Shown: positions 7,405-38,170, numbered from the stretch's first letter. The stretch is DNA of 38,170 nucleotides from Perkinsus olseni (GCA_013115125.1 JABANN010000333.1:1-38170); one strand, 5' to 3'. A program made the numbers and translations. The notes: generated from the letters alone by a model not told the origin.

Positions 7405-7512
7405 AAAAATGATCGCAAAAAGTCGCTGCCAGAGCAGCTCCCAGCACGGTGAATTTTTCCGAAATTCAGTTGTCACAAAAACATGATAAACCCAGCCGTG
7501 CCCAACAACGAA

Positions 7513-7549
7513 TTGTCATAATCTTGTCTTAATCCATTGTCTTAATCCA
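7513..7549. repeat. Short tandem repeat: TTGTCATAATC followed by 2x TTGTCTTAATCCA
   Basis: Read directly, about 110 bp upstream of the oxygenase copy B start. Confidence 0.7.
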
Positions 7550-7758
7550 GCGAACAGGATAAAAGTCAGATGAGTTGGACCCGACTTAGGCCGTGACTCC
7601 TTCGTGCAAGATAGATGTGTTCGAAATTTGGTATTAACGACCTCACTCTTACACTTCGAAGCGAGAACCCTTTCGCTGTCCACAAGAGCAACTCAAAGCA
7701 TTGTAAATAACCGTAATCACGCAACAGCATGGGACACCGTGTGGAGAGCTTCTCGGCG

Positions 7759-9291
7759 TCACTTCTCCAACCCTTCCAGGAAGGTCTGCAGATGCTGCCC
7801 TTGATGCTTCAGAAAGTCGATCTGAGAACTTCACACTATACAAAGCGAGAGCGAGCACCTCACCTCCTCCTTCCGTTTCCTCTCGTCGATGTTGTTTCTC
7901 TCTGTCTCCCTCCTCTCGATGGCCTCACATCTTCGCTCCAACTCAGCCAATTTCGTGGCCAACGTTCGCCTCTTCTCTCTGAGCTCTTGCAGCTGACAAA
8001 GCATGACCGACGTGTCTACCACAATTGGCCTACTGATCGTGGCTCCATGTCAACGCTACAGAGAGTCTCCAAATGAGCATATCGGCAAGAGTCTAACTAA
8101 GCCGGAATCGGCGTTGGACTATAAGCTCACTCACCCATACTAATTGTGGAGGAATTGCAAGTGTGCAAGATGCCCGAGGCCCACCCACTGTTGACAAAAA
8201 ATCTGGAATAGACGCTGCCGCATCGTGGTTCAAACTGTTTCGTCACATCACGGCTCGTGTACTAGGTGGCGGCAGCAGTGAGAGTAGCGAGACCTCACCT
8301 TGTGCTCAGCCTCGTCCTTGCCCTCCTCCGACTGGATCTGTTTGCGAGTGCCAAATACGACCGAGGAATGGTATCTGTTGTATCTTGATGATGGTGGCGG
8401 CGGCGGTGTTGTAGACCTCACAGTGTTTGGTAGGCGGCAATTGTCATCCTTATCTCATTGCGAATTCGCAGTAGCAGTAGCCCTCTCTCGGGGCAGTCCA
8501 ACGTCACTTGCCGAATAAGCTCATCTGCGGGACCCCAACTTGGCGAGGGACAATATTCTCAGTTCGAATGGAGTAGTAACAAGCGCACATCGACATGACC
8601 AGAGGTCAAGGCAGAGAGATAGATAACACAAGCCGACTTCCAACAGTGGCCGTGAATTAAGAATGTCAATGCGCGCAAAGCCATCGCGCACTGGTATCCC
8701 ACAGCATCGAATGAGCTCACCGAAGCACTGGCCATAGAGTTCCTCTCGAACCGGACATATGCCGGTCTCTCGGGCCTGTCTCTCCATGAGTTTCTCATCC
8801 AAGGCCTCCTGCAACTGTATAACATCCAGTCTAGTGGAAGGCTGGTTGTTAACGTGCTGCACATCAAAGGAAGAATGACCTCAACGGTTAATTACGAATC
8901 GATATACCTGTAGGATATGTCTGCCATTCTCGGCCCACTCTCTGGGCGGGAGGAGGATGTGCAGCACCTAACGAGATCGTGAGAGGCACAAGTTTACGCT
9001 GGAGAGCGCTCACGTCCTCAATGGTCGGCTTGCTATCCATAGGAGGAAGTTCAGCTGACTCGGTTAGCTGGGCGGCTATGGCGTCCGCTATCGCTTTGTC
9101 CGGATCCGACGCCTCGATGCCGAGGAATTTCAACTGAGGCAGGGATCAAACCCGACCCGGCAACAGAGTGGGAGCACCTCATCCTCTTCGGGATTGACTG
9201 GCGGCTCAGGGGCCTCTCCGACGTCCTGTGGGGGGTCGTAGCGTACCAATGACTCGCGAGGGCACTCTTGCGGCAGGACAGCCGGAGCCAT
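7759..9291 (-). CDS. DNALI1: Axonemal inner-arm dynein light chain p28, multi-exon
   Basis: Exons encode SLVRYDPP, ILLPPREW, TRLDVIQLQEALDEKLMERQARETGICPVREELYGQCF, IRQVTLDCPERGLLLLRIRNEIRMTIAAYQTL, YHSSVVFGTRK and FLKHQGQHLQTFLEGLEK*. These are the p28/DNALI1 signature blocks. Confidence 0.93.
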
Positions 9292-10957: not shown

Positions 10958-12061
10958 TCACACCAACGTCCTTGGGCCCTGCAGCCAGACCGCCAGATCG
11001 CGCAGAGTGATGAACCGTCGCCCATCACAAATAGCGTTGAAGATGAGGCCGAGCTCCTCGGCAGCGAATACTATACCGGCGTTGTTACCTGAGCGGAATA
11101 ACGGCACCTGCCGGGATCGAACCTGGGCAGAGCTAACGCGCGATATTGTTGAATTCCTCTTGAGTAAGGCCCTCGCTCATATGGGAAAGAGCATTGTTCT
11201 TATATAGTAGAGACAGCTGCTCGGGGCTCTGGACCACCAGCTTCCGAGCCACCTGATCGGCAAGTCGATGGCCTCGTGCCTAGCTAGTCGCCTCTCACAG
11301 CATCGAGAGCTCGGGTCTTGGCCATTCCTATGTATGCTCCAGCACAACCGACAAGGAAAATACCGGGACCCAGGATGAGCCCAGCAAAGGGCCAGGCATC
11401 GTTGGTCCAAAGAGCTATGAAAACATGGATGCCTAGAAAGACGTACCTACTCGGAAAAATACCCGTGCTGGGGTTCGAACCCGAGACTTACCAGAAGCCT
11501 TTGCCTGTAAGCCTGGTGAGGAACTTCACATACCGACTGACGAAGGCTTGGTAAAACAGTAGCTAACAGAGAAAATCGTCATTGCGAAAAACCATCACGA
11601 ACGATTCAGACCCCTCGGGGCTTCACCGGTGCATCAACAACCAGCATGATGAGACCGAAGGCGAGGAGGTAGATGTCGTCTGTGAGGTCGAAAGGGGCGA
11701 ATTCTGTGAAGGCTGTGGTCAAGGTTGAAGATACCCCCGCCACTACTGTGCCTGAGTCCATGAGTTGATCAGGTGATCCAGGAAAGTTAGGCTCCTCCCG
11801 CTAACTCGGGAAATTCTGGCAGTTAGTCGACACTTTAAAGCACCGCGCAAACAGCTCACCCAGAGCAGCGAAGAAGAATGCCACCTCCAACTGCTGCAAA
11901 GCGGCACCAGCTTGATTTCCGACAACCTAAGTGGAAATCACCAGCAATTTGGATTACAGCTTTACCATAGGTGCCGGCATCCCTTCGCCGTAAGGGCGCG
12001 AGGCCATCAGTGGCTGATTCTCAGTCATCTGTTGCTGGTGCTGCTGATCGGGGATCGGCAT
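10958..12061 (-). CDS. COPI-associated/Tvp15-like membrane protein with a soluble, EF-hand-like C-terminal tail, multi-exon
   Basis: Not in the ORF track; assembled from short exons: DIYLLAFGLIMLVVDAP, YVKFLTRLTGKGFW|YVFLG (family pattern FL...GRG.FY.F.G), further TM segments, then GLTQEEFNNIAR...EELGLIFNAICDGRRFITLRDLAVWL. Confidence 0.65.
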
Positions 12062-12342
12062 GCTGACGAGTAGTACTCTGAGCGCTCACCCCATAGTTCC
12101 CCAACGCGAGACCAAGCACTGCTTGGCAAGCAGGTCACAGAAACGTTCTTTCATGCCGCATCCACACGCTTAGTGCCGCGCATCTCGAGGGTACTGTATA
12201 TCGACCCGCTGTAGGCCCCTTGCAGAAAGTTGGCCTCATTCAGTCTCGGGGCTGCTGTGGGTGGCTGCACCGTTATCGGCGGGAGTGGGTGTACTGGTCG
12301 GCTCTGAGATGCAATGAGGAGGTCGGCACAGGGCCGCCACGG

Positions 12343-15300
12343 TCACGACGAAGTAGGGAGATCTATGACGCCCATCAGAAAATAGCAGAAGATAATTTCC
12401 ACCACTAATGATTCAGAGTTGATGTGTTCGCTCGTGAAAATGCATGACAAAGCGGCAGTGTAGTGTTCGCCTACCGCGCCATCAATAGCAGCCATGAGGC
12501 ACTCCAGGCTGTGGGGCGAGAACTTCTTCTCGAGCAGCTCGCTGCGGAGTAGCTCTCCAACCAGGCCCTCCGTCACAGGCGGGGTGTTGTAGACGCTATT
12601 AGTGCGGCCTTTGGCGGATGCTCGGAGACGACCTGACCGTGCGAGTGCCATCAGCATACCGCTCGAAACTTCGGTATTTCCACGCTATATCCGCTCAGGT
12701 AGGGAAACCAAGAACGAGCTCTCACTCAATAACGAGCTCGCTCGCATGTGTGCGAAGAGGTACCCCAACTTCTCAGTGGCGCCCTCGGACACAGTCCACA
12801 TCCCTGCCTCGGCCGTCAAAGGATGGTAGCTAGGGGCTAGTTCGACCGGCGAGAACCTGGCATACGATTCGACGGCTTCTTCTCGTACACACCGTACGCT
12901 CTGGCAACCTCCTTCGCCTTGTTGCGGAGGTCCTCCACAGTGGCCGTGTCCGGGTCAAACTCACCAGAGTGCAGCACGCATATGACCGCTATTTCTCGAA
13001 GGGCCCTAAGGGAGGATGGAACAGCTCAATGGCCCGACCTTGGACGGCAAGTGACGCTTTCCTACCAGACGTAGAAGTAAACGTCTCGCCGGACTGAACG
13101 GATCTCATGCTCGCTAGGCACTCGGCCCCCATCCCGAGCCATGTAGCGGATGACCTGGGGGAGGAGTGGTACAGTGAAAGCGCAGTTTAGTGGCAGCGGC
13201 TACATCAGAGTCCAAAGCAGCCAGCTCGGCCAATGAGCCTGCTAGAGCCTTGGCGTCAAGTGGAAGATGGGCAGTCTTCTGAGAATGACAACACGTCGGT
13301 CGCTGCCGAGCTCAGACGACACTTTTATATCGCACACAGACCGGTGACGATCAGCACAGAGACAGCAGCCTCCCACAACGGCCTAGCTCGTTCTAACTCC
13401 GAAATCTCACTGGACAATTCTCTACAACGCCACGCGGTTGAAAATGCCTCTCTCACCGATTGTCCGAAGAGCATATGCATAGCGGTGCCCATCTGGTGAC
13501 CGAAGGATAGCACCTCCTCATAGTACAGCTTCCTGAGAAGGGACCACCTAACACTGTACGGGACAATGCGTATTCACCTCACTACGTTAACCTGAGGCCT
13601 CACGAAGTTGAGCTCTGTGAACACATGACCGTCACAGAGAGACACAGTGCTGGCTAGACCGGTCTTGTACTTCTTGCTACGAGCAAATACCCGCACGTAC
13701 CTGCTAGCCCGTGAATTTAGTGGCGCGTGACGGTGAGTCCTCACCAGTATCCGATGTGAGCGTTGGTAGCCGCATTCACCACATGCATAATCTGATATTG
13801 TCAACTAGAGCCGGCGGAGCGAAGCGGGTCCCCCCTACTTTAACATCCCTGTCCCAACCCTCGTGACTGAACGTGACGTTGTCGCTCTCGTCTATGAGGT
13901 CCACATTGAACAGCCTAGAGGCCAGCTCGCTATACCGCTTCAAAGCCGGGCCAAAGACCATATACTCAGCCAGTTGGCGTTGAAGTCGGTCTTGCCGGCA
14001 CATAGTGACGTAGAAGAGCTCATCGATGAGGTCCACATTGGTCGTGAGAGGCCCCTTCGGCTCCGGTGTGACCTTGCCGGCCATCGCTCCCAGTTTCAGT
14101 TGCTCTAGGCGCTTCACGAAGGGCACCAACAGCGGCAAACCGTCGTTCCAACAGTGCTGCAATACCCGCATCAAGTGGGCGTCATTGTGGATGCCCAACT
14201 GAGCGTTCTCCATCTCACCCCAGCTGGCAAAGCCAAGGGACTCGGCCACGCGTTTCCGAGCCTGCAGTACTGCTAGGATGCTTCGGTCGTGGGCCTCATT
14301 CTCGTAGAAATGCCTATGGTAGGCGTTAAAGATGATCTCTCTGGTCTTCCTATTATGACACTCGCCGACTACTCGATAATACGTAGCCCTATCCGCCTAA
14401 TGAAAAAAGTTGGAAAAATCGCTTCGCTCCGCTAGAACCTGGTTGCTTACCCTGAGACAGTAGCTATCGGTCCTATACCACACTCTAAAGTACCGCATAG
14501 CGTCCTCAGTGAGGCCTATGAGGTCCTTCTTCCTGAGGGGTACACCGCCTGTCGAGCTGAGACGCAGAGCCGAACCCGCCGGTACTTGAAGTAGTTCCTC
14601 TCTCCCTTCATCTTCTTATAAACCACCTTATGGCCCTTACCCATCGCCTTGAGTAGCTTCTTTGCCTGGCCTTTGGACTTCTCGTCCAACAACAACTGCC
14701 AGGCAGAGGATATACGTCACACCAGGCAGCCAGATGGCACTATAGGGCACTCCACCAGAGAGAGTCCAGCGACGAAGTGTTTTTTGGTAATACAGTTTAC
14801 AATCGGTGATCCGCTACCCTCCGAGACCACAGAGAACACTACCACCGAGCAACGCTGGCGCCCCGCTGAGACCACCCGTTGATACCTCTAGCAAGCGTGT
14901 ACCACTGAAGTGGCCGACCTCCTCCTTGCTTATTCTACCGCCCTTGAATAGCTTCCGCGTCACGTCGCACGAGTTGGATATCATCCAGCTGGACCATAGC
15001 CGCAAATACCGGCCACTGAAAACAGCGAACCTCTGATCAACAGCATTCAGCCAGCCAACAGCTACCCAGAGATGGCTGGGTTGGAGACCGCCTGGGCCTT
15101 CTCGACGTGGCGCATGAAGGCCAAGTACCTCTGCTTCAACTCCTTGTCCTCAGTAGCCTTACTGAGAGATCTCCTCAGGGAAAAATATCTGACAGTGCTT
15201 CGCTCCGCTGAGGCTTTATTGAAGGATGAGTAGTGTTGCATGAGGGGTCGCTCAACAAACCAATTCTGACACTCAGAATCGATACTGGAACCGCATTTTA

Positions 15301-15719
15301 CGCGCAAAAATCAATCCTAGAATCGATTCTGACATTCAGAATTACTTCATTCGGGGGGAATAGTTCATCCCTGCACGCCCACTAGCCTGGAAAGGTCCCC
15401 TAGTACTACTTCAATACCATCTTGCTCCCACTTCGCATTTGTCTGAGGTCCAGCGGCCCTTCAGCCCTCTCCCCTCGAGCAAAGGCTACTGTATTGAGGA
15501 TGGGATTGAATAACCGTATCCCTGGGAAGGCCACTCGCATGCCCTTCTCCATCACCGGCATGCCGACTGAAGTGGAACGCGACCTGTCGTCCTTCCGCCG
15601 TCCCCTAGACCAGTACGCTTGTTCCGGATGACACCGTCTCCGGGCCGGGCCGGGTCGAAGCCCATGCGCTTCAGCGTCTTCTGCTGCTTTGATAAGGCCC
15701 TCGCCACGGCATCACCCAT
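12343..15719 (-). CDS. Peptidase M3 family homolog (oligopeptidase A/mitochondrial intermediate peptidase-like), predicted catalytically inactive; ends approximate
   Basis: Exons encode CHNRKTREIIFNAY, ILAVLQARKRVAESLGFASW, ASRLFNVDL, WDRDVK, ELNFVRP and EEVLSFGHQMGTAMHMLFG (aligns to EVxTLFHEMGHAMH), in the expected M3 order. Confidence 0.75.
15262..15343. repeat. 22-bp inverted repeat pair (19/22 match) at the ends of a predicted 80-nt intron
   Basis: AATTCTGACACTCAGAATCGAT (15262-15283) versus the reverse complement of 15322-15343 (AATTCTGAATGTCAGAATCGAT). Confidence 0.85.
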
Positions 15720-15851: not shown

Positions 15852-17662
15852 ATGGTCTACGGTGACGATCATCCGAAGGAGTTTCCGGTAATGTCATCGA
15901 ATGCCATACCGATAGAAGTGCTTCGCTCCGCCTCCCGACCAGCTGCTTCAATGACGGTACGAGCGGGAGGAGACTGGACTGTGGAGGAGTTACTGTCCAA
16001 GGCTGGCTTGGATAAGGCAGAAGAAACCGTTATTGCTACTCGGAGTAGTATTGGCACCGGGGATCGAACCTGGGTGCTTCCTCACCTTCATTAGGTGTAT
16101 GGGAGTACTACAGGGAGCTAGAGGCCCGGAGCGCTGCGGACAGAAGCGTAAAGTGAACTACGGTGGCAGATGGGAAGAGTTTCATCTTATGCAGTCCTTG
16201 CGGCTTGCCGAAGAGAACCGTCGTCTCTCGGAGGAGGTAGTTCGGTTGGAGACCTTGCTACAGCGCAAGGCCGGGGAGACGTCGGTCGAGCAAGACGTAG
16301 TAGGGCAGAAACGGTCCTGATTTGGGATCGGGATGGTATGACGAATATGTGGACCTCAGGGTTCCGTGACTGCACCTAATAGTGCTCGGAGTCATTTGTC
16401 AAGGCGCAATAGTGTTACTTCGATGCTCAGCTACCAGAGCGAGGCGTAGGTCAATGCACAGACTCATTCGTACCAAATTTCTCACAAATCGTGACTAGGT
16501 ATATGGAGCATCAGGAGAGTGAGATCCTCCGACTTGACCAGGAGGTCAAATCTTTGAAAGATACCGTGAGTGAATCCTCCTGGAGATCTTCCCAACCTCA
16601 GTGGCCTCAGAATCGGAACCTTCACGATGAGTTGTCACGCATGCGGACGGACTTGGACAAGGCGAATTCTGATAATGTACAGTTGAAGCAGCAGGCGGCT
16701 GATCTACTAGCAGATAGGGACAGTCTTTTGCGAAGGCTTTCCAACGAATCTGCCGGAGCCCTACTGGGCGGCGGGAGTCCGGACTCGGCCGCTGGGGCGG
16801 AGACGAAGTCACCTGAGGGTGAAATGCCTCCACTCCGCTCGTATGTGGTGATGCACTTTTGATAGGGTCTTCGGCGGAGGGGAGCCTGCGTGTAACGCTG
16901 TCGCCAACGTCTTCCCCTCCTCGTCAACCTCCCCCTGCTTCCCCTGGGGGGTTCACTGAAGCATCCAGTCCTACCTGGTGTAGCAGTAATACCCCGGCCA
17001 TTGTCTTGGACGGGCTACTGCCGTACAGCCCCGACACCGCCGCTGGGGGTCTGGATCGAACAAGGACCGACGAGTAGGTGTGCAACTATGGACGGCTTTC
17101 GGGAGGGCCTCTTCAGTGTCGTCCACACGCTGACTATCAAAGTAGCCGAGCTAGAGCGCGATAAGGAGCAGTTGGTAGAACGTCTTAGTAAGGCCCTCGG
17201 AGGCGACCCCAGTACGTCACGGTAGGTCACCGTGCAGGGGGTGGTAGTGGCAGCGATGCCCCTCAGGCCCAGCTGCTCCCCCTCCTCGGTCGGGCGGTCC
17301 TTCGGTACATTCCCGTATCGTTGTCTGCCTTATTGGGAGTCTCATGTTCAGGCGCCTCGCTATGTGATGAGCTGACAGCGTTCCACAATGCTGAGAAGGT
17401 GGAGGAGCTAGAGGCGGAGTCGGATATGCTCCGGGACACTGTGGCACGATATCGGTCGTTAGTGCAGCGGAAGGTGGGCAAGGCCGGAGGGCAGCCCCTT
17501 GGTTTTACACACTCTGAATGATAGGTGTTGTTTCCGACTAATTTCGTGGTCGCCTTTCAGGACGAGTACCTTGCTAGGATCGTTGCGGTACTGCGAGAAG
17601 ATGCCGGCCAGAAGCAACGGCGGCCAGTGGGCGAGGCAGCAGGTCGCTTGAAGGGCCAGTAG
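15852..17662 (+). CDS. Hypothetical coiled-coil protein, multi-exon; start uncertain
   Basis: Successive exons with heptad-like E/K/L/R content (LAEENRRLSEEVVRLETLLQ, EILRLDQEVKSLKD, KVAELERDKEQLVERL, KVEELEAESDMLRD) separated by short GT-AG introns. Stop TAG at 17660-17662. Confidence 0.6.
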
Positions 17663-17689: not shown

Positions 17690-17885
17690 CAGTACTTTTT
17701 ATCAAGCATGTATCAATGAACAACAGTACACGGGTTTGGTTGTGGTGGTCACGGTAAAACTGCTTCGCTCCGCTAAGTTTTTTGTCCCAGAAAAGGACGC
17801 AGCAGTAGTTTTACCCAAGCATGTATCTGGGAACAGTACGAGGGTTTGGTTGGGGTAGCAAGGGAGAAAGCTGCTTCGCTCCGCT
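17690..17885 (+). repeat. Degenerate direct duplication (period about 112 bp) in the intergenic region before the DGK gene
   Basis: 17690-17774 and 17803-17885 share CAGTA-TTTT, CAAGCATGTATC, AACAGTAC, GGGTTTGGTTG and CTGCTTCGCTCCGCT in the same order. Confidence 0.85.
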
Positions 17886-17916
17886 CAATCTCTCGTCTCA
17901 GAATTGAATTTATTCT

Positions 17917-23748: not shown

Positions 23749-26700
23749 TGGCTCCTCGAGAACTCCTATCGTCGGCAACAGGCGATAGGAGGAATGATGC
23801 AGCACGCCTATGGACGGTATGAAGCCGTCGCGCTTGGCGCTGACGAGACTAGTACTCTGTCTGGGGAAGGTGGCATTCTTCATAGCTGCTTTCTTGCCTG
23901 CTTCTTTCCGCTCGGCAGGTGTCGACAATTGGGGCGGCCTCAGTTTGACGATGGTCGACTCTCTCGACACGCTGGCTTTGATGGGCATGCGAGCCGAGTT
24001 TGATCGGGCTGTCGACTGGCTCCATCAGCATTACAGAGAGGCTCATAGCAAGAATCTTTCTGTTAATACCTTCGAGTCTACGATTCGGATACTAGGCGGG
24101 TGAGATGGGAAAGGAGTGGTAGCAAGCAGCCTGAAGGATGGCCGAAAGTTAACGCTTCGGGCCTTTCCTCCATCAGGAGGCTTCACGAGAGTTTGTAACG
24201 GATGTTCCTCGGTTAATACATTCCAATCTGGGCGTGTCCGACCATATTTCCAATCATCGTGGCAGCATCGTATGGGGCATTGCTAGGAAGCGTCTCACCT
24301 CCGCTCAGGTACTTGGGCGGATGGACCCTCACGGTTCCTAATTCTCGCCAGAGAGCCATGCTGGCCGAGATGGCTGAGGATATCGGGCTGAGGTTGGTGA
24401 AGGCGTTCTACGCTCACGCTAATAACCGGGAGAGAAAGACCCCACATTTACCGTATTCGGACATCAACCTTGCGACAGGTGTGTGCGAGAATACTGTGGC
24501 CGAAGACTCACGCTTTGCTCTGTTGGCAGGGGAAGGCGCTCTGCTCGGGGGATACGTTAGTTTATCGGAGGCGAACGTCGGCCTCGATCTCAGAGCGGCC
24601 ACAATGGTCACCGGCAACCCTGTTTTCGCCGAGGCAGCCGCCAACGTATGCGTAGTATACGAGTAGAACGCGTAGTAGAACGAACTCATTCGCGAGTGTC
24701 GAAGTTATCGCGCTCCCAAATAGAGCGCTATGGCATCAAGAATGCACGTTGCTGTGGTAGCGGGCCTGCACTTTGTTCGAGCGGTGCCGGAAGCTTAACC
24801 CACTGCTGCAAAGGCCACGCTAGATTGAGAGTCGGGAGTTTATCTCGCCTAGTTTGCATACACCTCATCCGCCTGAGAGTTCGAGTTGCGCAAACGATTG
24901 ACTGATTTCGGGTCGACGGGTTGCAGATGAATAGTCCTGGCTCGCTGCTTCTCTGTTTGGGAGTTGCCAATCGCGGCTTTCTGGTGCCAGGTTCGTGCGC
25001 TATTGCGAACGCACTACAATGTTGATGCCGGCGGACTTCTCCCGGTCCTACTGCCGCTAGTTCCACAGGGGACGGATGACTTCAAAGATATCCCCGGAAA
25101 TAAACTAGGTCTCGGAGCACGAGGCGACTCCCACTATGAGTAGGCCATGGGCGTCCCTCGGAATATCAGCTCGAGCAGTGGGCCAGGTACATCATAGAGC
25201 TCTCCATGCTTAGGTACTTGTTAAAGGAGTGGATCCTGGGAGGCAAGAGCGATTCCTCGTTGCTGAGAAGCTGGCAGAACAGCCTGTATAAGATCTATCA
25301 TAACTTCAATTCGCATGCTGAAGTGGACGGTCTGGGACAAGACCGCATCGCTGAGTAGTGAGGATGATATAACTTGGGTCTTCGCCCTGAACGATGTGCT
25401 AGCTCCCAGAGGTTGCCCACGGTCGCTACGCGTCCCTGCTCAAGCATCTTTGGACCTAGCGGGACATTGTTTCTGATGTCAGTTTCGAACTCTACTGGTC
25501 GGTGCCGAAAATGGACCACCTTACCTGTTTTCTACCAGGGACTCTAGCGCTGGACTACATCGTTCGGAGAGACTATAACGAGTACGGGTGAGCTCACTTC
25601 TCCCGATTCCAGAGGAGGGTCATCGCGAGCTTCATTTGTGAGAGAGTGCGTGGGTGGCAATAGGGCGACAAGGCATTGCTGGGCCGTTCACTCGAAGGTC
25701 CCCTTGAGCTTACATGGCTCCATTGTGCCTCGACTCAGATCGAATTCGTATTCGCCGTCCACGCGAGAGCGTTGGCGCACATCAACGGCTTTCGAGGATC
25801 TGCTACTGTCAACTGGAGGAACGCTGAGTATCGATCAAGAGCTTGACTGGGCGAGAAACCTCACCTCAGCATGTATAGGGATGTGAGTTGAGGCGGTATG
25901 GCTGGGCTTTCTCAGTGCATTAAGGCTCTGTTGATCGCATGAGCATGCTCGCAAACACATACCGTAACATAGCTCACGTAGGCCAGATTTTATATAGCCA
26001 TTGTATGCAAGTCGCTTCGTATCACCGTATTAATGCACACCAATGTTGCGATACCACTGTTTCCGCCGATTGCTGAAAATCTCGAACGCCTGCTTGATCC
26101 TGCTGCGGACTGAGACACTACTGTCCTTCCGCTGTAGCGTTGTGAACATGTTCTCCTCAGGTATTCAAGAATCTCCGAGACCGGTTTGGCCCCGGAGATC
26201 ACCCGCTTTGACGCCCACGGCCTAGTGGACGACGTTGGCGCCATGCACAATCTCCTCAGACCAGAGGCTATTGAGGCTCTGTGGTACATGTGGAGAGCCA
26301 CCGGAGATTGGTGAGCTCATGGGGTTCCCAATGGAACCGGTGGGCCATAGCATTAGTGGTTCCGCAAGGTTCGTTCGTATGGACGCTCGAAAAGTGACGT
26401 CTGGTCTAAGTGGTCGCATGGCACTGAATCAATGGGCTGTCATTCTCACGTTTTGAGAACTTTTCACTCGCATTCTCACGTCCAATTTGATGACCGAGGT
26501 ACTACAGAGAAGCTGGCTGGCGTATGGCTCGAGCATTCGAGCGTTATGCACGCACACCTTATGGATACTCTTCACTGGGCAACGTCAGAAAATCCGGCAG
26601 TTACACAGGATGGCAACCGACCTACTTCTTTTCTGGTATGATTCTGCGGGGAAAGCTGGTGTCGTTGGGATTCCCGCGGACTGCCTCGGTCCTATTGATG

Positions 26701-26988
26701 ATATCTTGCAGCAAGATTCTTGCTGCATCTCGCGTGGCCAGGAAATTCCGGCTCATCTATCTAGCCTGCGACGAAGGTATAGGCATTGAGTGACTAGGTC
26801 CATCATAGCTGTTGCGGCACCCTTGGAATTAAGCATCGGATCTAATTTCAGAAACCTTGAAGTACCTTTACCTCCTCTTCTCCCCGGACTCCATTGGTGA
26901 GAGTCCTGGCGTGCAGGACGGTATCCTCTTACATCACAGCGTGTACGTTCTCAACACTGAAGGGCATCCGTATGCTATACCTACGTAG
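23749..26988 (+). CDS. Glycoside hydrolase family 47 alpha-1,2-mannosidase, multi-exon; true start lies further upstream and is unresolved
   Basis: Exons encode HAYGRYEAVALGADE, LTMVDSLDTL, FESTIRILGG, GARGDSHYE|YLLK, KMDHLTCFLPGTLAL, GLAPEI, LLRPEAIEALWYMWRATGD, QPTYFFS|ETLKYLYLLF and VLNTEGHP. Confidence 0.93.
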
Positions 26989-27456: not shown

Positions 27457-30400
27457 ATGAGTACTCAGTTCGGTACCGAGTGTCCCGTTTGATTAACGGT
27501 CTATGACAGAGTCTTTGTGGTGGTCAGGTTGCCAATACTAGGCAAGTCGATGAGAGCCTAGAAGTCAGCCTGCATCCTCGGTATGTCTTCGGCGTCCGCT
27601 CGGACGTGAACAATGGGGTAGGAAAGTTCAGGTCACGTGTGTATCGGGCGTATCCAAGGCGGGCAGTAGCCCGAATCCCTATCGAGTATTCAGTCAGTGT
27701 CATTTATATCATGTGCCGACTGAGCGAATCGCTCAGTCGGCACATGGCACATCGCTCCGAGCGATACGTGGCTGAATTACATGCAATCTTCATCCTCTCT
27801 CGAGAAGTAGCACCTCAAGGACTGGCGAAAGTATGACGGGAAGGGCGTATAAAATTGGCGTTTTCGAAGGTACACTTCGTTGACGATCAACATGTAGCCT
27901 GCGCTGCTGGAAATAACATCGTAAGTTCATGCAATCGCAACTTCCGGTCTCGCTTTTTCCGGGGTTGCAAGTGACGAAGGGTTTTATCAGACCCAACTTC
28001 ACGTAGACCAGCGGACGCAAACGTTCATGCCAGCTACGAAGGGAGCCCTAGGGATCAGCTGCACTACAATCTCAGCTGAGCGGAGGTGGGTCAAGTCACT
28101 CGACAGCTGCTCGACCCGAGTAGCTAAGCGTTCCGCTCATTCTCATTGCGGCGAGGCGACTCTGTAGCGGATGACGAGCGATCTTGGTTGCTGCTCCTTC
28201 CGGCACTTCGGCACTTCATCGCCATTTCCAATTGAGATGCTACGCGAGGCATATCCGTAGGTACTTGGCTGTGGGTGAGCGCCACTCTGAGCAGGCCATC
28301 GTCAGCGTGTTCGATCTCGCCTCTTCTAAGAGAGTGAAAACCCTGAGGACTGAATGTGGAGTGAAGGATGTGGACTGCATAGCATTCTCTGGAGGAGAGG
28401 GCAAGTAAGGATGCAACCCGTAGTGGGACGCAATGAATACATCCACTCCTCGATGACTTGAGGATGTACTCGTGAGTGTAAGCGAACGCCTATGATTGAT
28501 CGATTGGAGCAATTTGCTCTGTATGTCATGATTGATTGAAGGCATTCACTGAAGAAGAGAAATGCTGTTCTGTCTTGGATTTCGTACGCTTTCGGGTCTG
28601 TAGGTATCTGGTAGCTCTGTCAAAAGTCCACCCGTATGGTTCGCAGCTTAGCCCAGCCAAGGGACCTCTTCAACCAATGGCGGAGTGTGGATCCAGGCCG
28701 GACTACAGATTGAGCTGCTGGGTGAGCAATGTTGTCGCTCTGCGGTACACATCATATCTGCAGGACTGGGATCAAGGGCGAATGACGGCTAGCGTCAGGC
28801 TCTTGGACGGTTATCCGTCAGACCTGAGGGCTGTGGTGAGTTCGGATTCCATCATTCCCGCTGTAATGATGCATCTCTCTTTCAGCCCTCTTGTGTCTTG
28901 TTTTCTGTCTCGGATGGGATAAAACTATGCACCACCGGAGTCAATTTCGTGGCAGTTCATCACGTATCCCCTGCTGGAGAGCTCACTGCGGCGGTGAGAG
29001 TCGGGCTTCTGTGGTCCCACATCTCGCTCCTGTCCCACTTGAGTGGATCTAGCAGCTCAACGTTTTGCTAGACGCCCAGCGCGAAAAATGGAGTTTGAAG
29101 GGACCCGAGTTGCTTCGTTCGTGGCACGAAATTCGTGTATTCTCTATTGGTCGCGGCTGACGCGCGATCGCAGAATACACAGACGCTGCGCACAGTTGGC
29201 AGAAATGGCCCGGAGGTGACTGTACTCGCGACGGTGTCTTGAAGACACTGTCTTCACAGATACCCGTGCCGGAGCAGCTCAAGTGTTTGCCCGAAGAACA
29301 TCAGTACTCGATGGGTGAACCGAACCTTTCTAGTGATGCTCCATCCGGATTCGAAGTCACGAGTCATATTTGGACCGAGGTGGGGCTGCTCGCGCTCCCC
29401 GAGACAGCTGAGCTAAGCACCTTCAGGCTGGCGACGTCATTTGTGGGACTTCGAATGGGAAGCTTCTGCTTTTCGACGAGTACGGAGTATTCAAGTAAGC
29501 TATGCCGCATAGCCTATGCGACATACTTTTTCGTTGCCTCGACTCAAACGCCGTGGCGCAAGTGCACCATGCATGCCATGTTAATCATGTTATGGCGCAC
29601 CGTGTGCTATGATACGAACGAAATCCAATCAATGCCAATATACGAGCCTCGTATTACGGGCGGTGTCACGAACGTCTCGATTCGTTCAAACATGTCTTCA
29701 TGGCGGACTGTGAGAGTCCGACTCTCAATGGTGCGGACTAAGTAAGCACTTAACGCGTCTGCGCCCCTTCTATTGGGGAGTCACCGATGGTGACATGAGA
29801 GGAGGTCGGTTGCGTAATACTGAATGCGCGTGCGGGCGCAGCAGTAGTAACTACTGAGTTCGCACCGGCATGGAAGATCGAACGCGTGTACCAGGACTGA
29901 CTCTTCCTGTGCAGTAGACGGCGCCCATGGCGGCCCATGTCTTCCAAGGTTTCCTGACTGAGCTATTAGCGGCTCCTGATGAGCTGTAGATGCGGCAGCG
30001 CAGTGTTCATCTAATCCGACCGAAAGCTTGATCACTGCAAGTGACCGACGCTCGCCAGGCGAGCCGGCGTCTGTGGCTTGGTTGCTATTCTGAAAGTGGG
30101 CGACCCGGGGTTCAAGGGCTACTCTGATGGACATTTCGAACAAAGTCCTGAGCAAGTTCTCGCCTTTGGAGTGCAACTACTGATGCCGGACGAGCTCTCT
30201 ACATATCTTCGGGATTATTTATGAATGTTAGCGATGGTTAGCTAGACTGATGAGGTACGGTACGTCACATACCTGAGCCGACATATGTCGGTTTTTCACA
30301 TTCGGTGACTGTACCTACGACATCGTCGCTGATAAAACATTCCGTGAAAGCATCGTGCGCTTCGCATACCCAGACACCTTGCGGGTATGGGCGGCGAAAG

Positions 30401-33400
30401 GATTTTCTCGCTTCAAAGCACAGCCGAGCGGGTTGTCGGACATCTGCTTAGTACGTTCCCATTTGCCGCGAGGAGATCTGTACTGCACTACGCTCCTTGA
30501 GCGATGCAGCAAATTCGTTCAACGAATTTGCAACGAATTTCGTTGCATAGATACTCGTACAGCCCGTTTGCCGGGCTCTGTCAGCGACGGGTATTTGCCT
30601 CGGCGTGAAAATCTCGATTCTGATATTGGGATTGTAATTCTCCGAGGAGAATGATCTGCTTCGCCGAATGGGTTTGGACACCCCTGTTACCCGGTAACAG
30701 GCTAATAGCCTGAGGCTATACTTCTCTTGGAGGTGGCCATATGATATGGCTCATATCTGTCAATTATCGCGATCAAGTTTTTCATTCAAGCCAAGTGGCC
30801 TGTCTGGCTGTAAGTTGTGATGTGTTGCTTTCGGGTTAGTCTTCGGGACGATATTGTGGAGCCCGAGGTAGAGGCTGTCCGAGTTATACTTGGCTCTGAA
30901 ATTTGCTGAGGATGTGGAATCTGAGCTAGAGACTGCCGGATGAAATCGGAGACCACAATAGGCCGTACTTTTGTCCTACTGACGACCGTCATCACTCATT
31001 GTAGTCCTCGTCTTGGACTGGGTCCCCCGCGGCTTGAGCCTCCAGGCGTTAGAGTAACCGATTATTAATCTCATCAACCTGAAGCTAGGACTCGCCATAC
31101 ATAGCAGAATCGTGAAGTGCGGAGCCTAGACCGGCGAGTCTCTACACGAAGGTCGATGCTCCTATGAATGCCGCGCTTCAGTGACTCGCGAGTGGGCCCA
31201 AATCGGGTCAAAAACTGTCGATAACATCAGCAGCTGATGATCAGCTGCTATCTTTATGGTATGTGTTGTCGATCAGGCAATCACTGATCATCGACCCCAC
31301 AGCCACCAACGGTGCCTACCGCATTATGGCACCATGGTCGAGGGGAGGCTTTCTCACGGCTAGTGATGACGGTATAGTGAGGACGTTCAGGAAGAACTCC
31401 GATGACCCAGAACAGGTGACGCTCCTCCTTTGTTCCGATTCTGATGTCTGCTTCCTCTCAGCCCTACCGTCTCTCGAGGATCTTCTCGGTGGATCCACCG
31501 GGAAAGCACCCCTCCGGAAGTGAAAGCCAACCCGAAAGTTTGTCGGGTAACAAAGGAACTTCGCTGGTTTGCAAGAGTCGATTTTTTCCCAGCTGCTGGA
31601 CTGTCTTCGCCACACGGAGAAGCAAATACCACGAGCAAGGTCCGGACCGGATGATATTATGCGTTTTCCTGGGGAAAATTTGTTACCCCAGGCCCGTAGC
31701 ACGAAGCTTTTATCGATATCCTTGTCACCCTCGGAGGATTGCTTGGCAGCCATCACAGACCGTGGCCAGCTACTCTCCATCCCGCTTCGCTCCGCCAAAC
31801 GTGAGCCACGAATAAGTTATATTCAACTGATTAGATGGACATCCTCTGCCATCAGGCCTGAGGGAAGCACCTCTTAAAGGAAGCAGAGGAGAAGAGGAGT
31901 ACTTGCCAGAAAAGCAGCCCGCAAAGTGGATGCTGTGTAACGAAATTCTACGTGAACTACGATCGAGCTTCAGTCTTAGGTTCGTTCCACACGGGGCCAG
32001 TGCTGGGCATGGACGTCTGCGTTCGGAGGCCGATAGTAGCTACTTGTGGAGCTGACCATACGGTGAGGGAGCGAATGCCCGCCCGGGAATGAGTTTCTTT
32101 CTGCAGGTGAGGCTATGGAACTTCTGGGAACGTCGTTGCGAGCTGGAGCAGTATTTTATGGAAGAGGCCTTCTCGATCGCCCTGCACCCCAGCGGACTAC
32201 AAGCTCTAGTCGGCTTCGTCGACAGGCTCAGATTGATGGATGTGAGCCCCCGGGGATCCAAGATTGTCAACTGTGCACTGGCGAGGGCCACAAATTTTCT
32301 GATAAATCTAAAGGTTTGAGTTTTTGCTGTCTAGCTGATAATGACTACTGGTCGGTAGTAGTTCAATGACATTCGGCCATTTTTACTTTGTTTTCCGGCG
32401 CAGGTCCTCAAAGATGAGCTGAAGACTTACAAGGACTTCCCGCAAATCAAAAGCTGTCGGGAGTGTCGCTTCAGTAGTGGCGGCCACCTATTCGCAGCAG
32501 CTAGCGGCAACAACGTTGAGGTTGGGAGGAAAGCTCGAGTGCTTTCTGTAGCCAATTGCTCTCAGATCTACAAGACTTTTACATGCGAACGCGTCTATCA
32601 GCTGAAGGGTCATAATAATAAGGTGCGCAACTCGCGGCTGTGATGATGAGGATATTCTCTCCTAGGTTAGAGCCATCTGCTGGAACTGGGATGATACGAG
32701 GCTGGTCAGTGGCGGAATGGATGGTGCTGTGTGAGTGTCACTAGCGTTGATCGGGTATTTGCGTACGCATCGACCATGCCACAGTCGTTCGCTCATCTTA
32801 TACCCTACAAACTAGGTCCACGAAACGATGCCGTCTCGTTTGCAGGGCGCTTCATTCTGGCCGTCGATTGCGGTCAGGCAAATCCATAGTACCAGTATGT
32901 TGAATAAAATATTGTATGTTAATATAGGTATATTATGGTCTGACGTATGAGTTATTTTACTTCTTATCTTTCTCAATAGCCGTCTCGCTAAGGTACGAAT
33001 ATGACATGGTTGGCAGCGGCCAGCGCCTATCGGATTGGGTCAACAAGAGCTCCTTAGTATCCTCGGCCGCAGTGTGGACTGATACATCTGCAGTCAGCAA
33101 GAGAGGCTTATTGCAGAACGGCTTGCCGGTGACCCGAGTGTAGCTTCCGATGACTGTGTGTTGTCTCCATACGCTCGGCCACGCTGAGATACGCTGTTGG
33201 CAACAACAGCAGCATCCGTGAGGTCTACTCCTCTCAACTTCAAGGCTCCATCGATGCAAAACCGTCCTGCGACGACGATGTGACTGGCCCTGTCTATTTC
33301 GGTCAAATATGCCTTGGAGAGAGTAGTACGCTCTCGGCCTTAGGGATAGGCCGATAGGCTCCACTCAATGTGCGGTCGCTAGGTACCAAGACTCTGTTCG

Positions 33401-36400
33401 TAAGTACTTCTTCACCAGAGGACAGTGAAGGTGGGGGATGATCGTGCACAGCTGTAGTTGAGTTGCCTCTCAGTTCTCGGTGGAGCAATCCGATGCTATC
33501 GTCTCCTCTCGGAAGAGAGCTCCGATAATGATGATAGTGGAGTTGTTGGGGATGAGGTGGCATCGGCTCCCACTTCGAGGCCCGATGCCATGTACGTCGG
33601 TGTCTGGAGCATTCCTTTGTGGAGTCGCCAGCAAACTCATTTGTCTTCCCCCAGCGGGCATACCACCGGCCCACTCTCAGCATGCATCATCGGTTACCTT
33701 CGACTCGGGCGGCTCAACATGGAGTGCTCTGTCAGATTCTCAGAGCAGCTGTGTCACTTTGGTGAGGTTACAAGGATGGCAATAACCGCCGATGAAAGGC
33801 AAGATATGCACGTGGACAGGCCTCGCGACTCGCCCAGGGTCCAGTGGTATTCTACTCGCTCTGCATCTTCTTGGGTTTGCGCGACTGCCCTTCCTCTGTC
33901 TATTCATTCGGATGGGCGTTGTGCTGACAAAGCTCGATTTGGTAGTTGCTTGCGGTTGCGTTCTCAGGATGCTCTTCACCTGTGGGGAGGACGGTTGTGT
34001 ATATGTCTTTGAGATACGGTGGGCATTGCATCATCCGTGATAGACATTCAGGCTTACGTGATCAGGAATAAGAGTAGGCTGCTGTCCATTCCGCAGAGTG
34101 GAGGTGCTGAGGGATCTGAAGAAGACGAGGAATTGCCGTGAGTATCTCCCGTTTCCCTGCCTGGACGACAGTGTCTCGCGTGGTCGGCTTCTCGTATTCG
34201 AGGGATCGCCTTGTGTGGAATGTGATTTAAACCTTCACGGTGGCCGGTTGGTACTGTTGTGAGTAGGTGTCTCTGAGTGGATATTCTCCATTGTTTGTCA
34301 GTGGTTATTTGATAGCTATTTTGCAGGTACTCGGAAGAGGTGCTGATGACCAAAACGGCACTGGACGAGAAGCAACATCAACGGAAGGATCTTCGGCGCC
34401 AAGTGGAGGAGCTCGCCAACCAAACGGACTACCAGCTACGCCACAGGTCGGGGGGGGGGGCGAAGCGAATGCGCGCGTGAAACTCGTTCTGTAGGGACTC
34501 GTACCACGCTGAAAGGATTGCGGCGTTGCAGGGGAAGTTCGAGAAGTCGTTGCAGGAACAGAGGGACAAGTACGGCTCGCTGTAGCGGAGTTTATGTGAC
34601 GGTCAACTCTCCGGCGGCTATCGTGGAATTCCAGAGTGGAATCAGTAGTAGCAAGTCGGTCTTTGTAGATACGAGATGCTTCGAGAAGAGAAAGACGACG
34701 TTCAAGGAGGTGCGTGGCTGGGCGTGGTTCCTACCTAGACGCACCTCTCCACTGCAGAGTACGAGCGGAAAATCAGAGATCTCTTGGAGACGCAGAAAAG
34801 CGAGCTGCAGGAACAGGAGATTGCCTACCAAGAGAAGATAGTGGCTCAAGTTACGAAGTAAACTACTCGGAATGTCGTCTGCGTTTGGGGTGGTTAGTCA
34901 CTACTTGGTATTGAGAGAACGGTACAGGCAAATCCGTCAGAGAGGAATTGGTGGCTACGCATTGAGACGTGTGGATCTCGCAAATTCCTGAGCGGTATTG
35001 CGCGGCTGGTAGGTGTCAGCAGCTAGCGCAGCAGCGGCACGAGGATCGGCGGCAATGGAAGCAGATGCATCAGAGCCTCTTGGACATGCACGAGAACAAG
35101 GTTGCCGAGTTGCGACAGCAGTAAGATGGTCGTAGGTCGTATTTCACTCCGCCCCAGGGTGTCATCGCACATTTGCTATAGTGGCTCTCGCGACCGCTGC
35201 CTTGCTGAGGCTGACGGTTCAGGTACCAGGAGCAAGAAGCGAGGGATCGCCTGCATAAGCAAAGGGTGGATGACGAGAAGGCTCTGGCGATAAAGGTGAT
35301 CGGAACTTCTCAGCTCTCAACGGACAGGAGCATTGAGTAGGTTCACAGCGAGACTGTACAGCAATTGGAGCAGGATGCGGTTGGAGAGCTGAATGATATG
35401 AAGGCTCAGTAGGTGTGCAAAGTTTGGGCTAGCTGGAACTTGGGTATCCAAGGAATGGTCGTGTGCCTGAATCAGGCAGTTTGATGCTTTGTTCTTCTGT
35501 TGCATGGCGTAACCTTGAGAACAAATTTGCGACATACCAAGTTGGTATTGGATCAACCTTTGTTAATACTATTACCTACGGTTGATCTTTAGAGCCTACC
35601 ATCCATGGGGCAGGAATGCGATCCGCTCGTCGTGCCAATATTCTTCTTCATAGTTTTCTTCTGTCTTCGTGCCATGCAAGGCAATCGGCTGTATGGTCGC
35701 TCTGGAGCGGGTTCTGATCATGTGTTGCGAACATTTTTAGGTACGAGCAGCTGTTGTCTTATGAGAGAGACGACAAAGTTAAACTGAGAGGAGAGGCTGG
35801 TATACATAAGAAGCATCATGAGGACTTGAGGAAGCAGATGCATAAGAAAGAAGAGGAGATAAGAGGTGACACTGGAAGGGGCCTCCTCGGTATCTGGCGT
35901 CGAGCGAACTGTGTTGCGGTTATGGTTCCTGATACGTTGAGTGTTTCGACGCAGGCCAACAGGAGGAGGCCAGGAGGAAGCAGGACAGGATAGACGAGTT
36001 GATGGCTGAGCGGGAGAAGAGCTTGAAGAACATTAAAGAACAGGACAAGGTTATCGGGGAGAAGGAACAGAAAATATATGATCTCAAGAAACAGAATCAG
36101 GAGCTGGAGAAGTTCAAATATGTAAGAAGAAGATGTCTGGTATGTTGCGCGATCTTCCGATTGCCCGATGCTCGTGGGCGTCAGATTATGGACTATAAGA
36201 TCAAGGAGCTGAAGGCACAAGTTGGGCCGAAAGAAGGGGACATAGCGGAGATGAAGAAACAGATCTCGGATATGGACCGGGATCTGGAAGAGTTAGTTGG
36301 GGGTTGCGGTTGACCTCGTCCATCCGGTGTGGCAGACATCACAAACAAAATAAACATTTAATGGATGACATCAAGCAAATGAGGGGGAAGCAGAAGGAGC

Positions 36401-37559
36401 TGCAGCGTGAGGTGGTTAAGAACAGGCAGCGGCTGTCAGACTTGCGCCGTGTATCGAGGGCCTTCAAGACGGACCTCTATCATACCACGCAGCACATATT
36501 GGTAGTTGCGCTCCTGCTGCTAGCCGTAGGGGAGCCTCATGCTCGAAAGCGCGTCACACGCTCATCGCTGGACTCGCGCATATTGCGACAAGGCAACGGC
36601 AGAATCGCTCAGGATCCCGAGAAGCTTAGAGACAGCTTCGTAGCCATGGCGAAGAAGTATGTGGAACTGCCTGACGACGATGAGGAGGCAGCGGAGAAGG
36701 AAGGAGAGGAGGAGGAAGAAGAAGAACGGGATGGGCAGGAACCCCCCACGAAAGATGTACATGACCTTAGCGAGGAGATCCGCGATGTAGTAACTTGGTA
36801 ACGTATCAGGGGTACACGGGGGATCATTAGGAGTAGTTTTGCGCATGCGGACCAGCTCTTCACTATAGGAGTACGAGCAGCAGAGGGGGTATCTCGAAGA
36901 GAAAGTGAATAAGCTGCGGACGAAGCTGCAGAAAGATGCAGAGGCTCGTCGGAAGGATAACTCTCGGATAATGGGGGTGAGCATTTGCCCGGCAGCTGGA
37001 CAGAGTACGAGGCTTGCAGGAGAATATTGCTCTACTGACTGAGATCGGCGAGCTTCGTAAAGAACTACAGGCTTTGAAGATGGAGCGTCAAGAGAGGAAG
37101 ATGAGCGTATCCAGGCCCGGACCTTCTACTAGAGCTGAAGCTGCGGGTACCACGGGGGCCCGTGCAAGCGATATCTCGCGTCCCCAGGAAGAGGAAGTCG
37201 CCCGATATAGTCTCTCGTGACTTCATGTATGATCTGCGTAGCATACTGGTTGTGACATATCGGTTCACGCTATATATTTTATTCTATACACGGAGTTGTG
37301 GTGACGCCTGGCGGGAACTGCCTGCGAACCGCGGTTCGCGTATCCGACTCGCGCCGAAGTGATCCTCTGTTTCTACGGGTTTGCTGTTTCAGCTGGAAGA
37401 AGACCACTCGGTGTGGGCAAGAAGGCTCCTGGACGTGCTTCAGAAATTGAACAGAACAGGAGAACCATAGCGGAACTACGTGAGAAAATTAGAGGCAGGG
37501 AGGAGATCATACGGAACTACGGAGAAGCGCTAACTAGAGGTGAATCTAAGCTACCATGA
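27457..37559 (+). CDS. CFAP57: Cilia- and flagella-associated protein 57 (WD40 repeats plus coiled coil), many exons; start approximate
   Basis: PRYVFGVRSDVNN, RYLAVGE, FHTGPVLGMDVCVRRPIVATCGADHT|VRLWN, EEAFSIALHPSGLQALVGFVDRLRLM, EQDKVIGEKEQKIYDLKKQNQELEKFKY..DYKIKELK and QENIALLTEIGELRKE match FAP57/WDR65 conserved blocks. Confidence 0.9.
27710..27746. repeat. Perfect palindrome with 18-bp arms and a 1-nt centre, in a CFAP57 intron
   Basis: CATGTGCCGACTGAGCGA-A-TCGCTCAGTCGGCACATG read directly. Confidence 0.95.
29495..31276 (+). other. Unusually long (1782 nt) CFAP57 intron rich in short palindromes
   Basis: Donor AA|gtaagc at 29495 and acceptor gatcag| at 31276 join FDEYGVFK to QSLIIDP in frame. 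Internal ORFs show no recognisable domains. Confidence 0.65.
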
Positions 37560-37980
37560 AAGATGAGACATCCTCATTGAGGATCCCTCCTTCGACGTGA
37601 TTGTTATCTTAGCCGAGGAGCTCAGTATTGGGTTGTTAACAAATCTTCGTGGGAGAATCCCTTTCTTTTGTCTCTCCGCAACCAGGTTTTGAAGACCGTT
37701 TTCTTCCGCTTAGCTGGGACTGTCGGGCACTCCGTAGCAGTTTTGTGCGTGGTCCGAGGTACTCACTCAAGATCGGGCCCAGTCATCTCGGTGTTATAAT
37801 AAGGCCCTGCGGCTGTGAAATGAAACTCTCGTTCCACAGCGGCAAGCTCTGCCGGGCAGAGTGGTATGCTCTGCTCGAACGACCTGATTTCGGAAACTAG
37901 CTTTCATGTGCCCGCCTCAACCACCGGTGAGATTGACGTGAGTTGTCGAACTGCTTCAACTCAAAAACCGGTGCCGATGT

Positions 37981-38048
37981 AGCTAATGAGCGTGATCCCA
38001 TCAGATGGGACCCGAACTCATTAGCTCATTAGCAGATGGGACCCATCT
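37981..38048. repeat. Nested inverted-repeat cluster
   Basis: AGCTAATGAG (37981-37990) pairs with CTCATTAGCT (38017-38026) and encloses TCCCATC-A-GATGGGA; then AGATGGG-A-CCCATCT (38034-38048). Confidence 0.9.
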
Positions 38049-38119
38049 TCAAGTATACGTTGAGCATGAAGCTACGAGGCTGGACGTCGTCTCAGTAACT
38101 ACACCATTTCCAGACCTAC

Positions 38120-38170
38120 TTAGTAAAACCCCAGAGCAATTTAATAAAGCCCAGAGCAAATTAGTAAAAC
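38120..38170 (+). repeat. Tandem repeat of 20-21 bp running off the window end
   Basis: TTAGTAAAACCCCAGAGCAAT / TTAATAAAGCCCAGAGCAAA / TTAGTAAAAC... Confidence 0.8.

Follow-up and report, generated by a model that had tools for sequence, protein, structure and literature searches.

Quantised one-base-centred palindromes in and around a Perkinsus olseni CFAP57 gene as probable excision footprints of a hAT-type transposon

The stretch of DNA analysed here, called the window throughout, comprises 38,170 nucleotides (nt) of Perkinsus olseni (GCA_013115125.1, JABANN010000333.1:1-38170). It is gene-dense and eukaryotic, and a family search identifies a kinesin, an axonemal dynein light chain, an M3 peptidase, a diacylglycerol kinase, a Mei2-like RRM protein, a glycosyl hydrolase 47 mannosidase and two MPAB-domain paralogues. 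The window also carries, mostly in introns of a gene for CFAP57, a series of perfect palindromes with a single unpaired central base, to which an earlier note on this DNA had drawn attention. We find that these palindromes are built on 8-mers in a fixed 22-nt pattern, and argue that they are probably the excision footprints, or scars, of a cut-and-paste transposon with 8-bp target-site duplications. Two genes are needed for what follows (events are numbered E1 to E19 and listed further below):

23798-26985, plus strand: glycosyl hydrolase 47 gene, neighbouring the CFAP57 gene, identified by Pfam and by GT..AG joints in contigs of run X7; one of its introns holds E2.
27837-38097, plus strand, extent approximate: CFAP57 gene, WD repeats followed by coiled coil, identified by matches to PDB sequences and by translations.

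The coiled-coil exon of the gene that begins at about 27.8 kb matches the CFAP57 chains 9d2f_W and 8j07_i4 in PDB, and the axonemal WD-repeat chain 8glv_Cp is matched as well; three other frames of the CFAP57 region, searched against PDB sequences, gave no match. The earlier note placed all the palindromes it listed in non-coding DNA. For E2 and E3 a non-coding position agrees with the contigs of run X7 (taken for RNA only on a guess by the tool), which skip the GT..AG introns 26635-26850, holding E2, and 27617-27868, holding E3; for the other events the non-coding status follows from the lack of a Pfam match in overlapping frames together with our own reading of the exons.

Inverted repeats were scanned exhaustively across the window by arm length and spacer, with 60 dinucleotide-preserving shuffles as control. 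The scan yields 28 palindromes with a one-base spacer and arms of at least 7 nt: 20 with arms of exactly 7 nt (shuffle mean 2.0, maximum 6), 2 with arms of 8 nt (mean 0.4) and 6 with arms of 9 nt or more (mean 0.1). Arms of 6 nt show no excess at this spacer (8 versus a shuffle mean of 7.5), spacers of 0, 2, 4 and 6 nt stay at the background level of the shuffles, and the apparent excess at spacers of 3 nt (arm 6) and 5 nt consists of the same one-base-spacer palindromes read with shorter arms. The excess is sharply quantised, being found only at spacer 1 and from arm 7 upward. The comparison with dinucleotide shuffles had been named as a check by the earlier note, and within this window its outcome bears the note out. 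The note's 19 palindromes are all correct in centre and arm length, and a further nine, centred at 12119, 12126, 26710, 26717, 29241, 29248, 29647, 29719 and 35471, had escaped it. Its remark that the left 27 kb holds essentially none is right in that palindromes are rare there, and has to be amended for four palindromes, belonging to two events, that do exist; the twelve that it counted in one intron become 14 in the large intron region.

The 28 palindromes are mutually unrelated in sequence, and a repeat search groups none of them except the self-palindrome at 27710. An interspersed repeat or a MITE (miniature inverted-repeat transposable element) family was rejected on these grounds, as copies would have a common sequence. 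The core argument of the earlier note, that a common geometry without common sequence points to a process rather than to a repeat family, stands.

What the palindromes have in common is a grammar. An 8-mer, t1..t8, is found as t1..t7, followed by the reverse complement of t1..t8, followed by t2..t8, so that each 22-mer holds two direct copies of the 8-mer, each without its inner base, and a full inverted copy between them. Six zig-zag pairs of palindromes have centres exactly 7 nt apart. A scan of the window for this 22-mer, with 40 second-order Markov simulations as control, finds 6 sites with no change (simulation mean 0), 2 with one change (mean 0) and 8 with two changes (mean 0.275), that is, 16 sites with at most two changes where about 0.3 are expected. 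Indeed, the apparently single palindromes centred at 29647, 29719, 30743, 35471, 37577 and 37854 are halves of decayed 22-mers. The events, to none of which a strand is assigned, are as follows:

E1, 12112-12133: perfect 22-mer on CCAAGCAG; centres 12119 and 12126.
E2, 26703-26727: perfect 22-mer on ATCTTGCT; centres 26710 and 26717, second arm 10 nt.
E3, 27710-27765: complex footprint; palindrome with 18-nt arms centred at 27728, 4 nt of filler, palindrome with 7-nt arms centred at 27758.
E4, 29234-29256: perfect 22-mer on GTGTCTTC; centres 29241 and 29248.
E5, 29499-29520: perfect 22-mer on GCTATGCG; centres 29506 and 29513.
E6, 29640-29661: decayed 22-mer with 2 changes on ATACGAGG; perfect palindrome centred at 29647.
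E7, 29705-29727: 22-mer with 1 change on GGACTCTC; right half is palindrome 29719, substitution in the left copy.
E8, 29842-29856: single 7+1+7 palindrome centred at 29849; right-hand copy of the 8-mer partly recognisable.
E9, 30050-30064: single 7+1+7 palindrome centred at 30057; second copy not recognisable.
E10, 30509-30547: two long palindromes, both on ATTCGTTG, centred at 30520 (arm 11) and 30538 (arm 9); overlap TGC.
E11, 30683-30701: single palindrome with 9-nt arms centred at 30692.
E12, 30698-30719: perfect 22-mer on CAGGCTAT; centres 30705 and 30712.
E13, 30736-30757: 22-mer with 1 change on GCCATATC; palindrome centred at 30743.
E14, 31225-31249: perfect 22-mer on CATCAGCT; centres 31232 and 31239, second arm 10 nt.
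E15, 35464-35485: decayed 22-mer with 2 changes on TGCCTGAT; palindrome centred at 35471.
E16, 35534-35548: single 7+1+7 palindrome centred at 35541; second copy not recognisable.
E17, 37563-37584: decayed 22-mer with 2 changes on ATGAGGAT; right half is palindrome 37577.
E18, 37840-37861: decayed 22-mer with 2 changes on CGGCAGAG; right half is palindrome 37854.
E19, 37996-38048: two 7+1+7 palindromes, both on TCCCATCT, centred at 38003 and 38041; 23 nt between them.

Of the 19 events, about 14 show the product with a full inverted 8-mer, which adds 14 bp, since 22 bp stand where 8 stood; eight to ten events are decayed. E10 is read as two long hairpin-derived tracts joined via a 3-nt terminal microhomology, and the right arm of E11 was later reused within the target of E12. 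The 23-nt spacer of E19 is a partial inverted copy of the left flank, and the fillers of this event hold further inverted and direct copies of flanking sequence. At about 19 events in 38 kb the density is ~0.5 per kb overall and ~5 per kb in one intron, and 11 of the 19 fall within 2.1 kb (29234-31249; p ~0.003 with the null confined to 26.7-38.2 kb). hAT elements are known for linked re-insertion, and the cluster would be in line with a single resident element that hopped locally again and again.

The grammar is specific in length. When the tripartite pattern was sought with unit lengths of 5 to 11 nt, with or without the 1-nt offset, matches appeared only for length 8 with the offset (n = 6), and lengths 5-7 and 9-11, as well as every length without the offset, gave 0 each. 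Furthermore, among 6-mer direct repeats spaced 1-45 nt apart, 8 nt is the only filler length enriched for the two complement rules: both hold in 7 of 21 cases where ~1.3 are expected at a 1-in-16 chance, whereas fillers of 2-7 nt give 0-2. When two centres lie 7 nt apart the match of their 8-mers is automatic, and the non-adjacent pairs are therefore the real test. Ten such pairs lie within 100 nt of each other. Two of them, 30520/30538 and 38003/38041, imply an identical 8-mer (8 of 8 positions); the third, 27728/27758 in E3, implies TGAGCGAT and GGAGCGAT, which agree at 7 of 8 positions; and in the remaining seven pairs the implied 8-mers differ at five positions or more. Two of the events with filler between their palindromes are thus still built on one 8-mer.

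Other samples of the species allow some of these events to be compared between strains. All of 1061 31-mers sampled from 27700-37699 (fraction 1.00) are present in contigs of runs from two studies, possibly the source samples, so that the sequence is found beyond a single assembly; no RNA run is listed among those that contain it. X8 and X9, runs labelled as the same species, contain about one fifth of the sampled words, which the tool equates with ~5% divergence. Contigs of these runs were set on the window, a comparison that covers three to four scars; there is next to no X8 or X9 cover at 29510-30843 and none from run X6 over nearly the whole stretch, where by the tool's own statement a filter removes records, and gaps in cover were not used as evidence.

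At E19, the X8 contig joins 37964 to 38042 via 33 letters that align by eye with window positions 37965-37996. This allele is 45 nt shorter and holds one plain copy of TCCCATCT, the very 8-mer predicted from the window, and both palindrome centres of E19 are A, the complement of the first and last T of that 8-mer. An empty allele with a single 8-mer is thus seen at one clean site. At E3, X8 and X9 have 16 other letters in place of window positions 27705-27758, including the 37-nt palindrome, which fits a derived insertion and is only partly consistent with an empty allele that holds a single 8-mer. At E14, the X8 contig is colinear over 31224-31236, from the left copy into the inverted copy, and both X8 and X9 carry a G>T substitution at 31236, inside the inverted copy, that breaks the palindrome; the scar is therefore common to the strains and has been mutated since. 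Because E3 and E19 are missing from X8 or X9, E14 is there in broken form, and other events are decayed, the ages of the events differ. The comparison of strains that the earlier note proposed gives a derived insertion at E19, an allele that fits one in part at E3 and a shared scar at E14. Together, these observations establish that the scars are real, differ in age and are at least partly derived insertions.

Two strain differences of another kind were seen on the same contigs. At 33334-33354, in a palindrome whose arms and spacer are each 7 nt long, X8 and X9 are without 11 nt (33341-33351), a strain-specific indel. At 32832/32833 an X8 contig has at least 33 extra letters that share only words of up to 10 nt with the window and have no local template; they could stem from an insertion in the divergent strain, conceivably that of an element.

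It is exceedingly improbable that the palindromes are an artefact of assembly, polishing or amplification. Odd 15-mers do resemble k-mer sizes, and the runs that contain every sampled word may be source samples; on the other hand, contigs produced by another pipeline from runs of two studies hold all 1061 words, E14 occurs with its substitution in the divergent strains, and neither decayed copies nor site-specific 8-mers are expected from an artefact. Nearly negligible, to a like degree, is the probability that the palindromes are selected hairpin structures or a family of palindromic repeats or binding sites. Their perfect stems could fold in pre-mRNA; against this, the sequences are unrelated, some scars are missing or broken in sister strains, an Rfam search of the window gave no match, and the direct-inverted-direct grammar has no structural rationale. 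Both the k-mer artefact and selected RNA hairpins were dropped.

hAT elements duplicate 8 bp of their target. Excision by hAT elements leaves hairpin-capped flanks. The footprint described for Ac/Ds consists of palindromic additions that have at their centre the complement of the base beside the transposon (PMC5873905). The scars of the window keep an 8-bp duplication on both sides, and at no other length; their palindromes have a one-base centre only, and at E19 the centres are complements of the end bases of the 8-mer in the X8 allele. We therefore consider it likely that a cut-and-paste transposon with 8-bp target-site duplications left the palindromes as footprints on excision, its flanks being capped by hairpins with a 1-base offset at the tip. 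Such chemistry is that of the hAT superfamily. The grammar, its limitation to length 8 with offset 1, the one empty allele and the differing age of the footprints are direct observations. Repair of hairpin intermediates after hAT-type excision was the first candidate of the earlier note, and the grammar, the duplicated 8-mer and the complemented centres favour it.

The transposon, the nuclease and the annealing step that we infer could act in the following way. The element would insert and duplicate an 8-mer, t1..t8. On excision both flanks would be closed into hairpins, with t8' at the left tip and t1' at the right; since the flank strand ends one base short, each tip would be complementary to the base that had been in contact with the element. 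A host nuclease would then open the hairpins several bases from the tip, leaving 3' overhangs of which the left reads t8'..t1' and the right its complement. Since both flanks carry one and the same 8-mer, the overhangs would be complementary in register and could anneal, and fill-in would leave 22 bp in place of 8. Any pair of openings whose tracts sum to at least 8 nt would give the same 22-mer, which would explain the sharp quantum. Ends that paired at their tips only, missing the register, could yield the longer palindromes with filler (E10, E19, E3), and a later point mutation in one palindrome of a pair could produce the seemingly single ones. The nicking may be distal, by an MRE11/CtIP-type activity, rather than an Artemis-type cut close to the tip.

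Break repair independent of any transposon, in which polymerase snap-back or template switching (polymerase theta-type, or U-turns at forks) adds inverted copies of the flank, has to be weighed here and seems to us unlikely. The fillers of E19 hold additional inverted and direct copies of nearby flank, the E10 joint uses a 3-nt microhomology, and no transposon is found in the window. Templated insertions of this kind are typical of the polymerase theta-type pathway, in which repaired breaks receive short inverted or direct copies of flank, much as is seen in the E19 fillers and at the E10 joint. However, break repair neither sets a unit at 8 nt nor duplicates an 8-mer directly on both sides, and only length 8 with offset 1 is found. 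A snap-back with a one-base loop keeps the original centre base, whereas the centres of E19 are complements of the X8 empty allele, and a single polymerase run would need two U-turns, differently placed. The scars thus differ from polymerase theta insertions in their fixed 8-nt unit, their target duplication and their complemented centre, none of which that pathway leads one to expect. Snap-back synthesis, the other candidate of the earlier note, is contradicted at the one empty allele, where it predicts an uncomplemented centre.

Slightly less probable again, in our estimate, is that the hairpin chemistry came from another source, either a different superfamily with 8-bp duplications, that is, a Mutator-like element (MULE) such as Muta1, or a domesticated and immobile hAT-like or RAG-like nuclease. 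MULE duplications are of 9-11 bp. MULEs form flank hairpins too, and the duplications of Muta1 are of 8 or 9 bp (PMC5499845); scans of the window, furthermore, found no hAT element. Against a MULE, the window has no 9-bp class, the 10- and 11-bp classes also giving 0 matches, with length 8 compatible with Muta1; excision of Muta1 in yeast is precise in >90% of cases (PMC5499845); and the complement-centred odd palindrome is what Ac/Ds shows (PMC5873905). A domesticated nuclease would leave the direct 8-bp duplication unexplained unless something also integrated.

Footprints of hAT-type excision are in keeping with what is known of related systems, from which the scars of the window also differ in certain respects. 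In plants, Saccharomyces cerevisiae and Candida albicans, Ac/Ds excision, as here, keeps the 8-bp duplication minus the inner base, makes palindromic additions centred on the complement of the element-adjacent base and uses microhomology in joining, with arms of up to 20 nt in yeast (PMC5873905). The footprints of Ac/Ds are heterogeneous and mostly short, the longest P tract described for Candida being 3 nt (PMC5873905), whereas in the window fillers of 2-7 nt are at background, the full inverted 8-mer predominates, and the element itself is not seen. The mechanism itself is known, the Ac/Ds footprint having been described (PMC5873905), and the earlier note's phrase of an undescribed mutational signature was too strong; novelty may lie in how nearly exclusive the full-length product is and in how densely it occurs. 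A search of full-text literature found no description, in the parts of papers it returned, of a 22-mer of target, inverted target and target as a standard product, and one may exist in print.

For Hermes and hobo, Zhou et al. in 2004 reportedly found a flank hairpin with a one-base offset that gives odd palindromes. This offset is the geometry found here; it describes the biochemistry of the cut and makes no prediction about the point at which the hairpin is opened by the host. In V(D)J recombination, and with Transib, a hairpin-capped flank opened off-centre likewise gives palindromic additions (P nucleotides). Hairpins of the RAG type are not known to carry an offset and so produce even palindromes, and the duplications of Transib are of 5 bp; the window is enriched neither for even palindromes nor for a 5-bp class. 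RAG- or Transib-type scars were accordingly rejected, with spacer 0 at background, the grammar without offset at 0 for every length and the 5-bp class at 0. Foldback of gapped integration intermediates was rejected too, as it would give an 8-nt spacer where 1 nt is observed. Natural excisions of DNA transposons in rice provide comparative evidence that excision introduces filler and shapes genomes (PMC4423477). The 94 rice excisions are very heterogeneous, with averages of 18 bp for deletions and 13 bp for fillers, and include no hAT excision (PMC4423477), whereas the scars in the window are uniform and dense.

Several findings weigh against hAT-type excision. Pairs of terminal inverted repeats (TIRs; at least 10 of 12 matches) flanked by an 8-bp direct repeat number 0 in the window versus 0-2 in 20 shuffles; with 9-bp repeats there are none, and with 7-bp repeats one weak match, similar to shuffles. 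No transposase family was found in 89 open frames of at least 70 aa from 22.8-37.9 kb or in 25 frames from 8.5-15.1 kb (114 frames in both sets), and a further family search of 17 frames returned host genes only. No occupied allele was seen among the strain contigs compared at three to four scars. With no element in the window, membership among hAT footprints rests on scar geometry, and the polarity of events on one clean site, E19. E3 fits at only 7 of 8 positions, and its X8/X9 allele is without 10 further nt for which the model has no explanation; the single palindromes E8, E9, E11 and E16 show no clear second copy. The hAT target consensus is nTnnnnAn, to which the inferred 8-mers do not clearly conform (by our own tally of 15, five have T at position 2 and six have A at position 7). 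Finally, short footprints, which prevail after Ac/Ds excision in plants and Candida, are missing here, and the hAT-type reading consequently requires an unusual regime of hairpin opening.

The process adds sequence to introns, as the earlier note had supposed, at 14 bp per standard event. We tentatively suggest, as something possible and not yet probable, that in this organism all hairpin-capped excision breaks are opened at a distance from the tip and sealed in register across the duplicated target, and that each hAT-like hop would leave exactly 14 bp of palindromic DNA. At the observed density, the movement of transposons would be a major, directional cause of introns growing and of new sequence able to form hairpins, and the 22-mer a countable and datable genome-wide fossil record of transposition and of host hairpin repair. 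A bolder version would have the breaks made by a domesticated hAT-like nuclease and not by a mobile element. From each scar one can read where one cycle of insertion and excision took place, on which target 8-mer, and how old it is relative to others (perfect, decayed or strain-specific). Were the pattern genome-wide, excision history could be measured without the element, excision repair would be shown to lengthen introns by a fixed quantum, and the pattern would reveal how hairpins are opened (far from the tip) and joined (by annealing), and would thereby tell something of the repair gene set. The density of scars appears unusually high for a compact genome. For annotation, a caution is that perfect short intronic hairpins are not necessarily selected structures.

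Other features of the window were noted in passing. At its end, 38098-38170 is a high-copy repeat of ~20-nt units (variants of CCCAGAGCAA...TAAAG/C), with a summed contig depth of 3,500-8,200 versus about 100 elsewhere; many contigs with differing left contexts begin at 38098-38100. The repeat may represent a satellite, or else subterminal repeats belonging to a mobile element. Among metagenome contigs, 29 bases taken from it found nothing, nor did the Mei2-like frame used there as a protein query. The 12-mer GCTTCGCTCCGC has seven exact copies (13814, 14421, 15197, 15920, 17762, 17873 and 31784), where 0.4 are expected and 0 of 100 shuffles reach seven; the flanks are dissimilar, and one copy lies, on our reading, in a CFAP57 exon. 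A regulatory motif and a hotspot are both conceivable.

An imperfect palindrome of 82 nt at 15262-15343, with 41-nt arms that are 73% complementary and no spacer, holds two copies of a 7+3+7 palindrome and is unlike the scars in geometry. Directly upstream of the diacylglycerol kinase frame, 17690-17903 is a tandem duplication of ~110 nt with 76-81% identity. ARAGORN finds no tRNA gene in the window, where three motifs resemble a tRNA T arm (GGTTCGAACCC type; 983-1001, 11109-11127 and 16060-16075); these may be fragments of tRNA-derived elements. On the minus strand, 4397-7515 is a tandem gene duplication comprising two paralogous frames for the MPAB/Lcp oxygenase catalytic domain.

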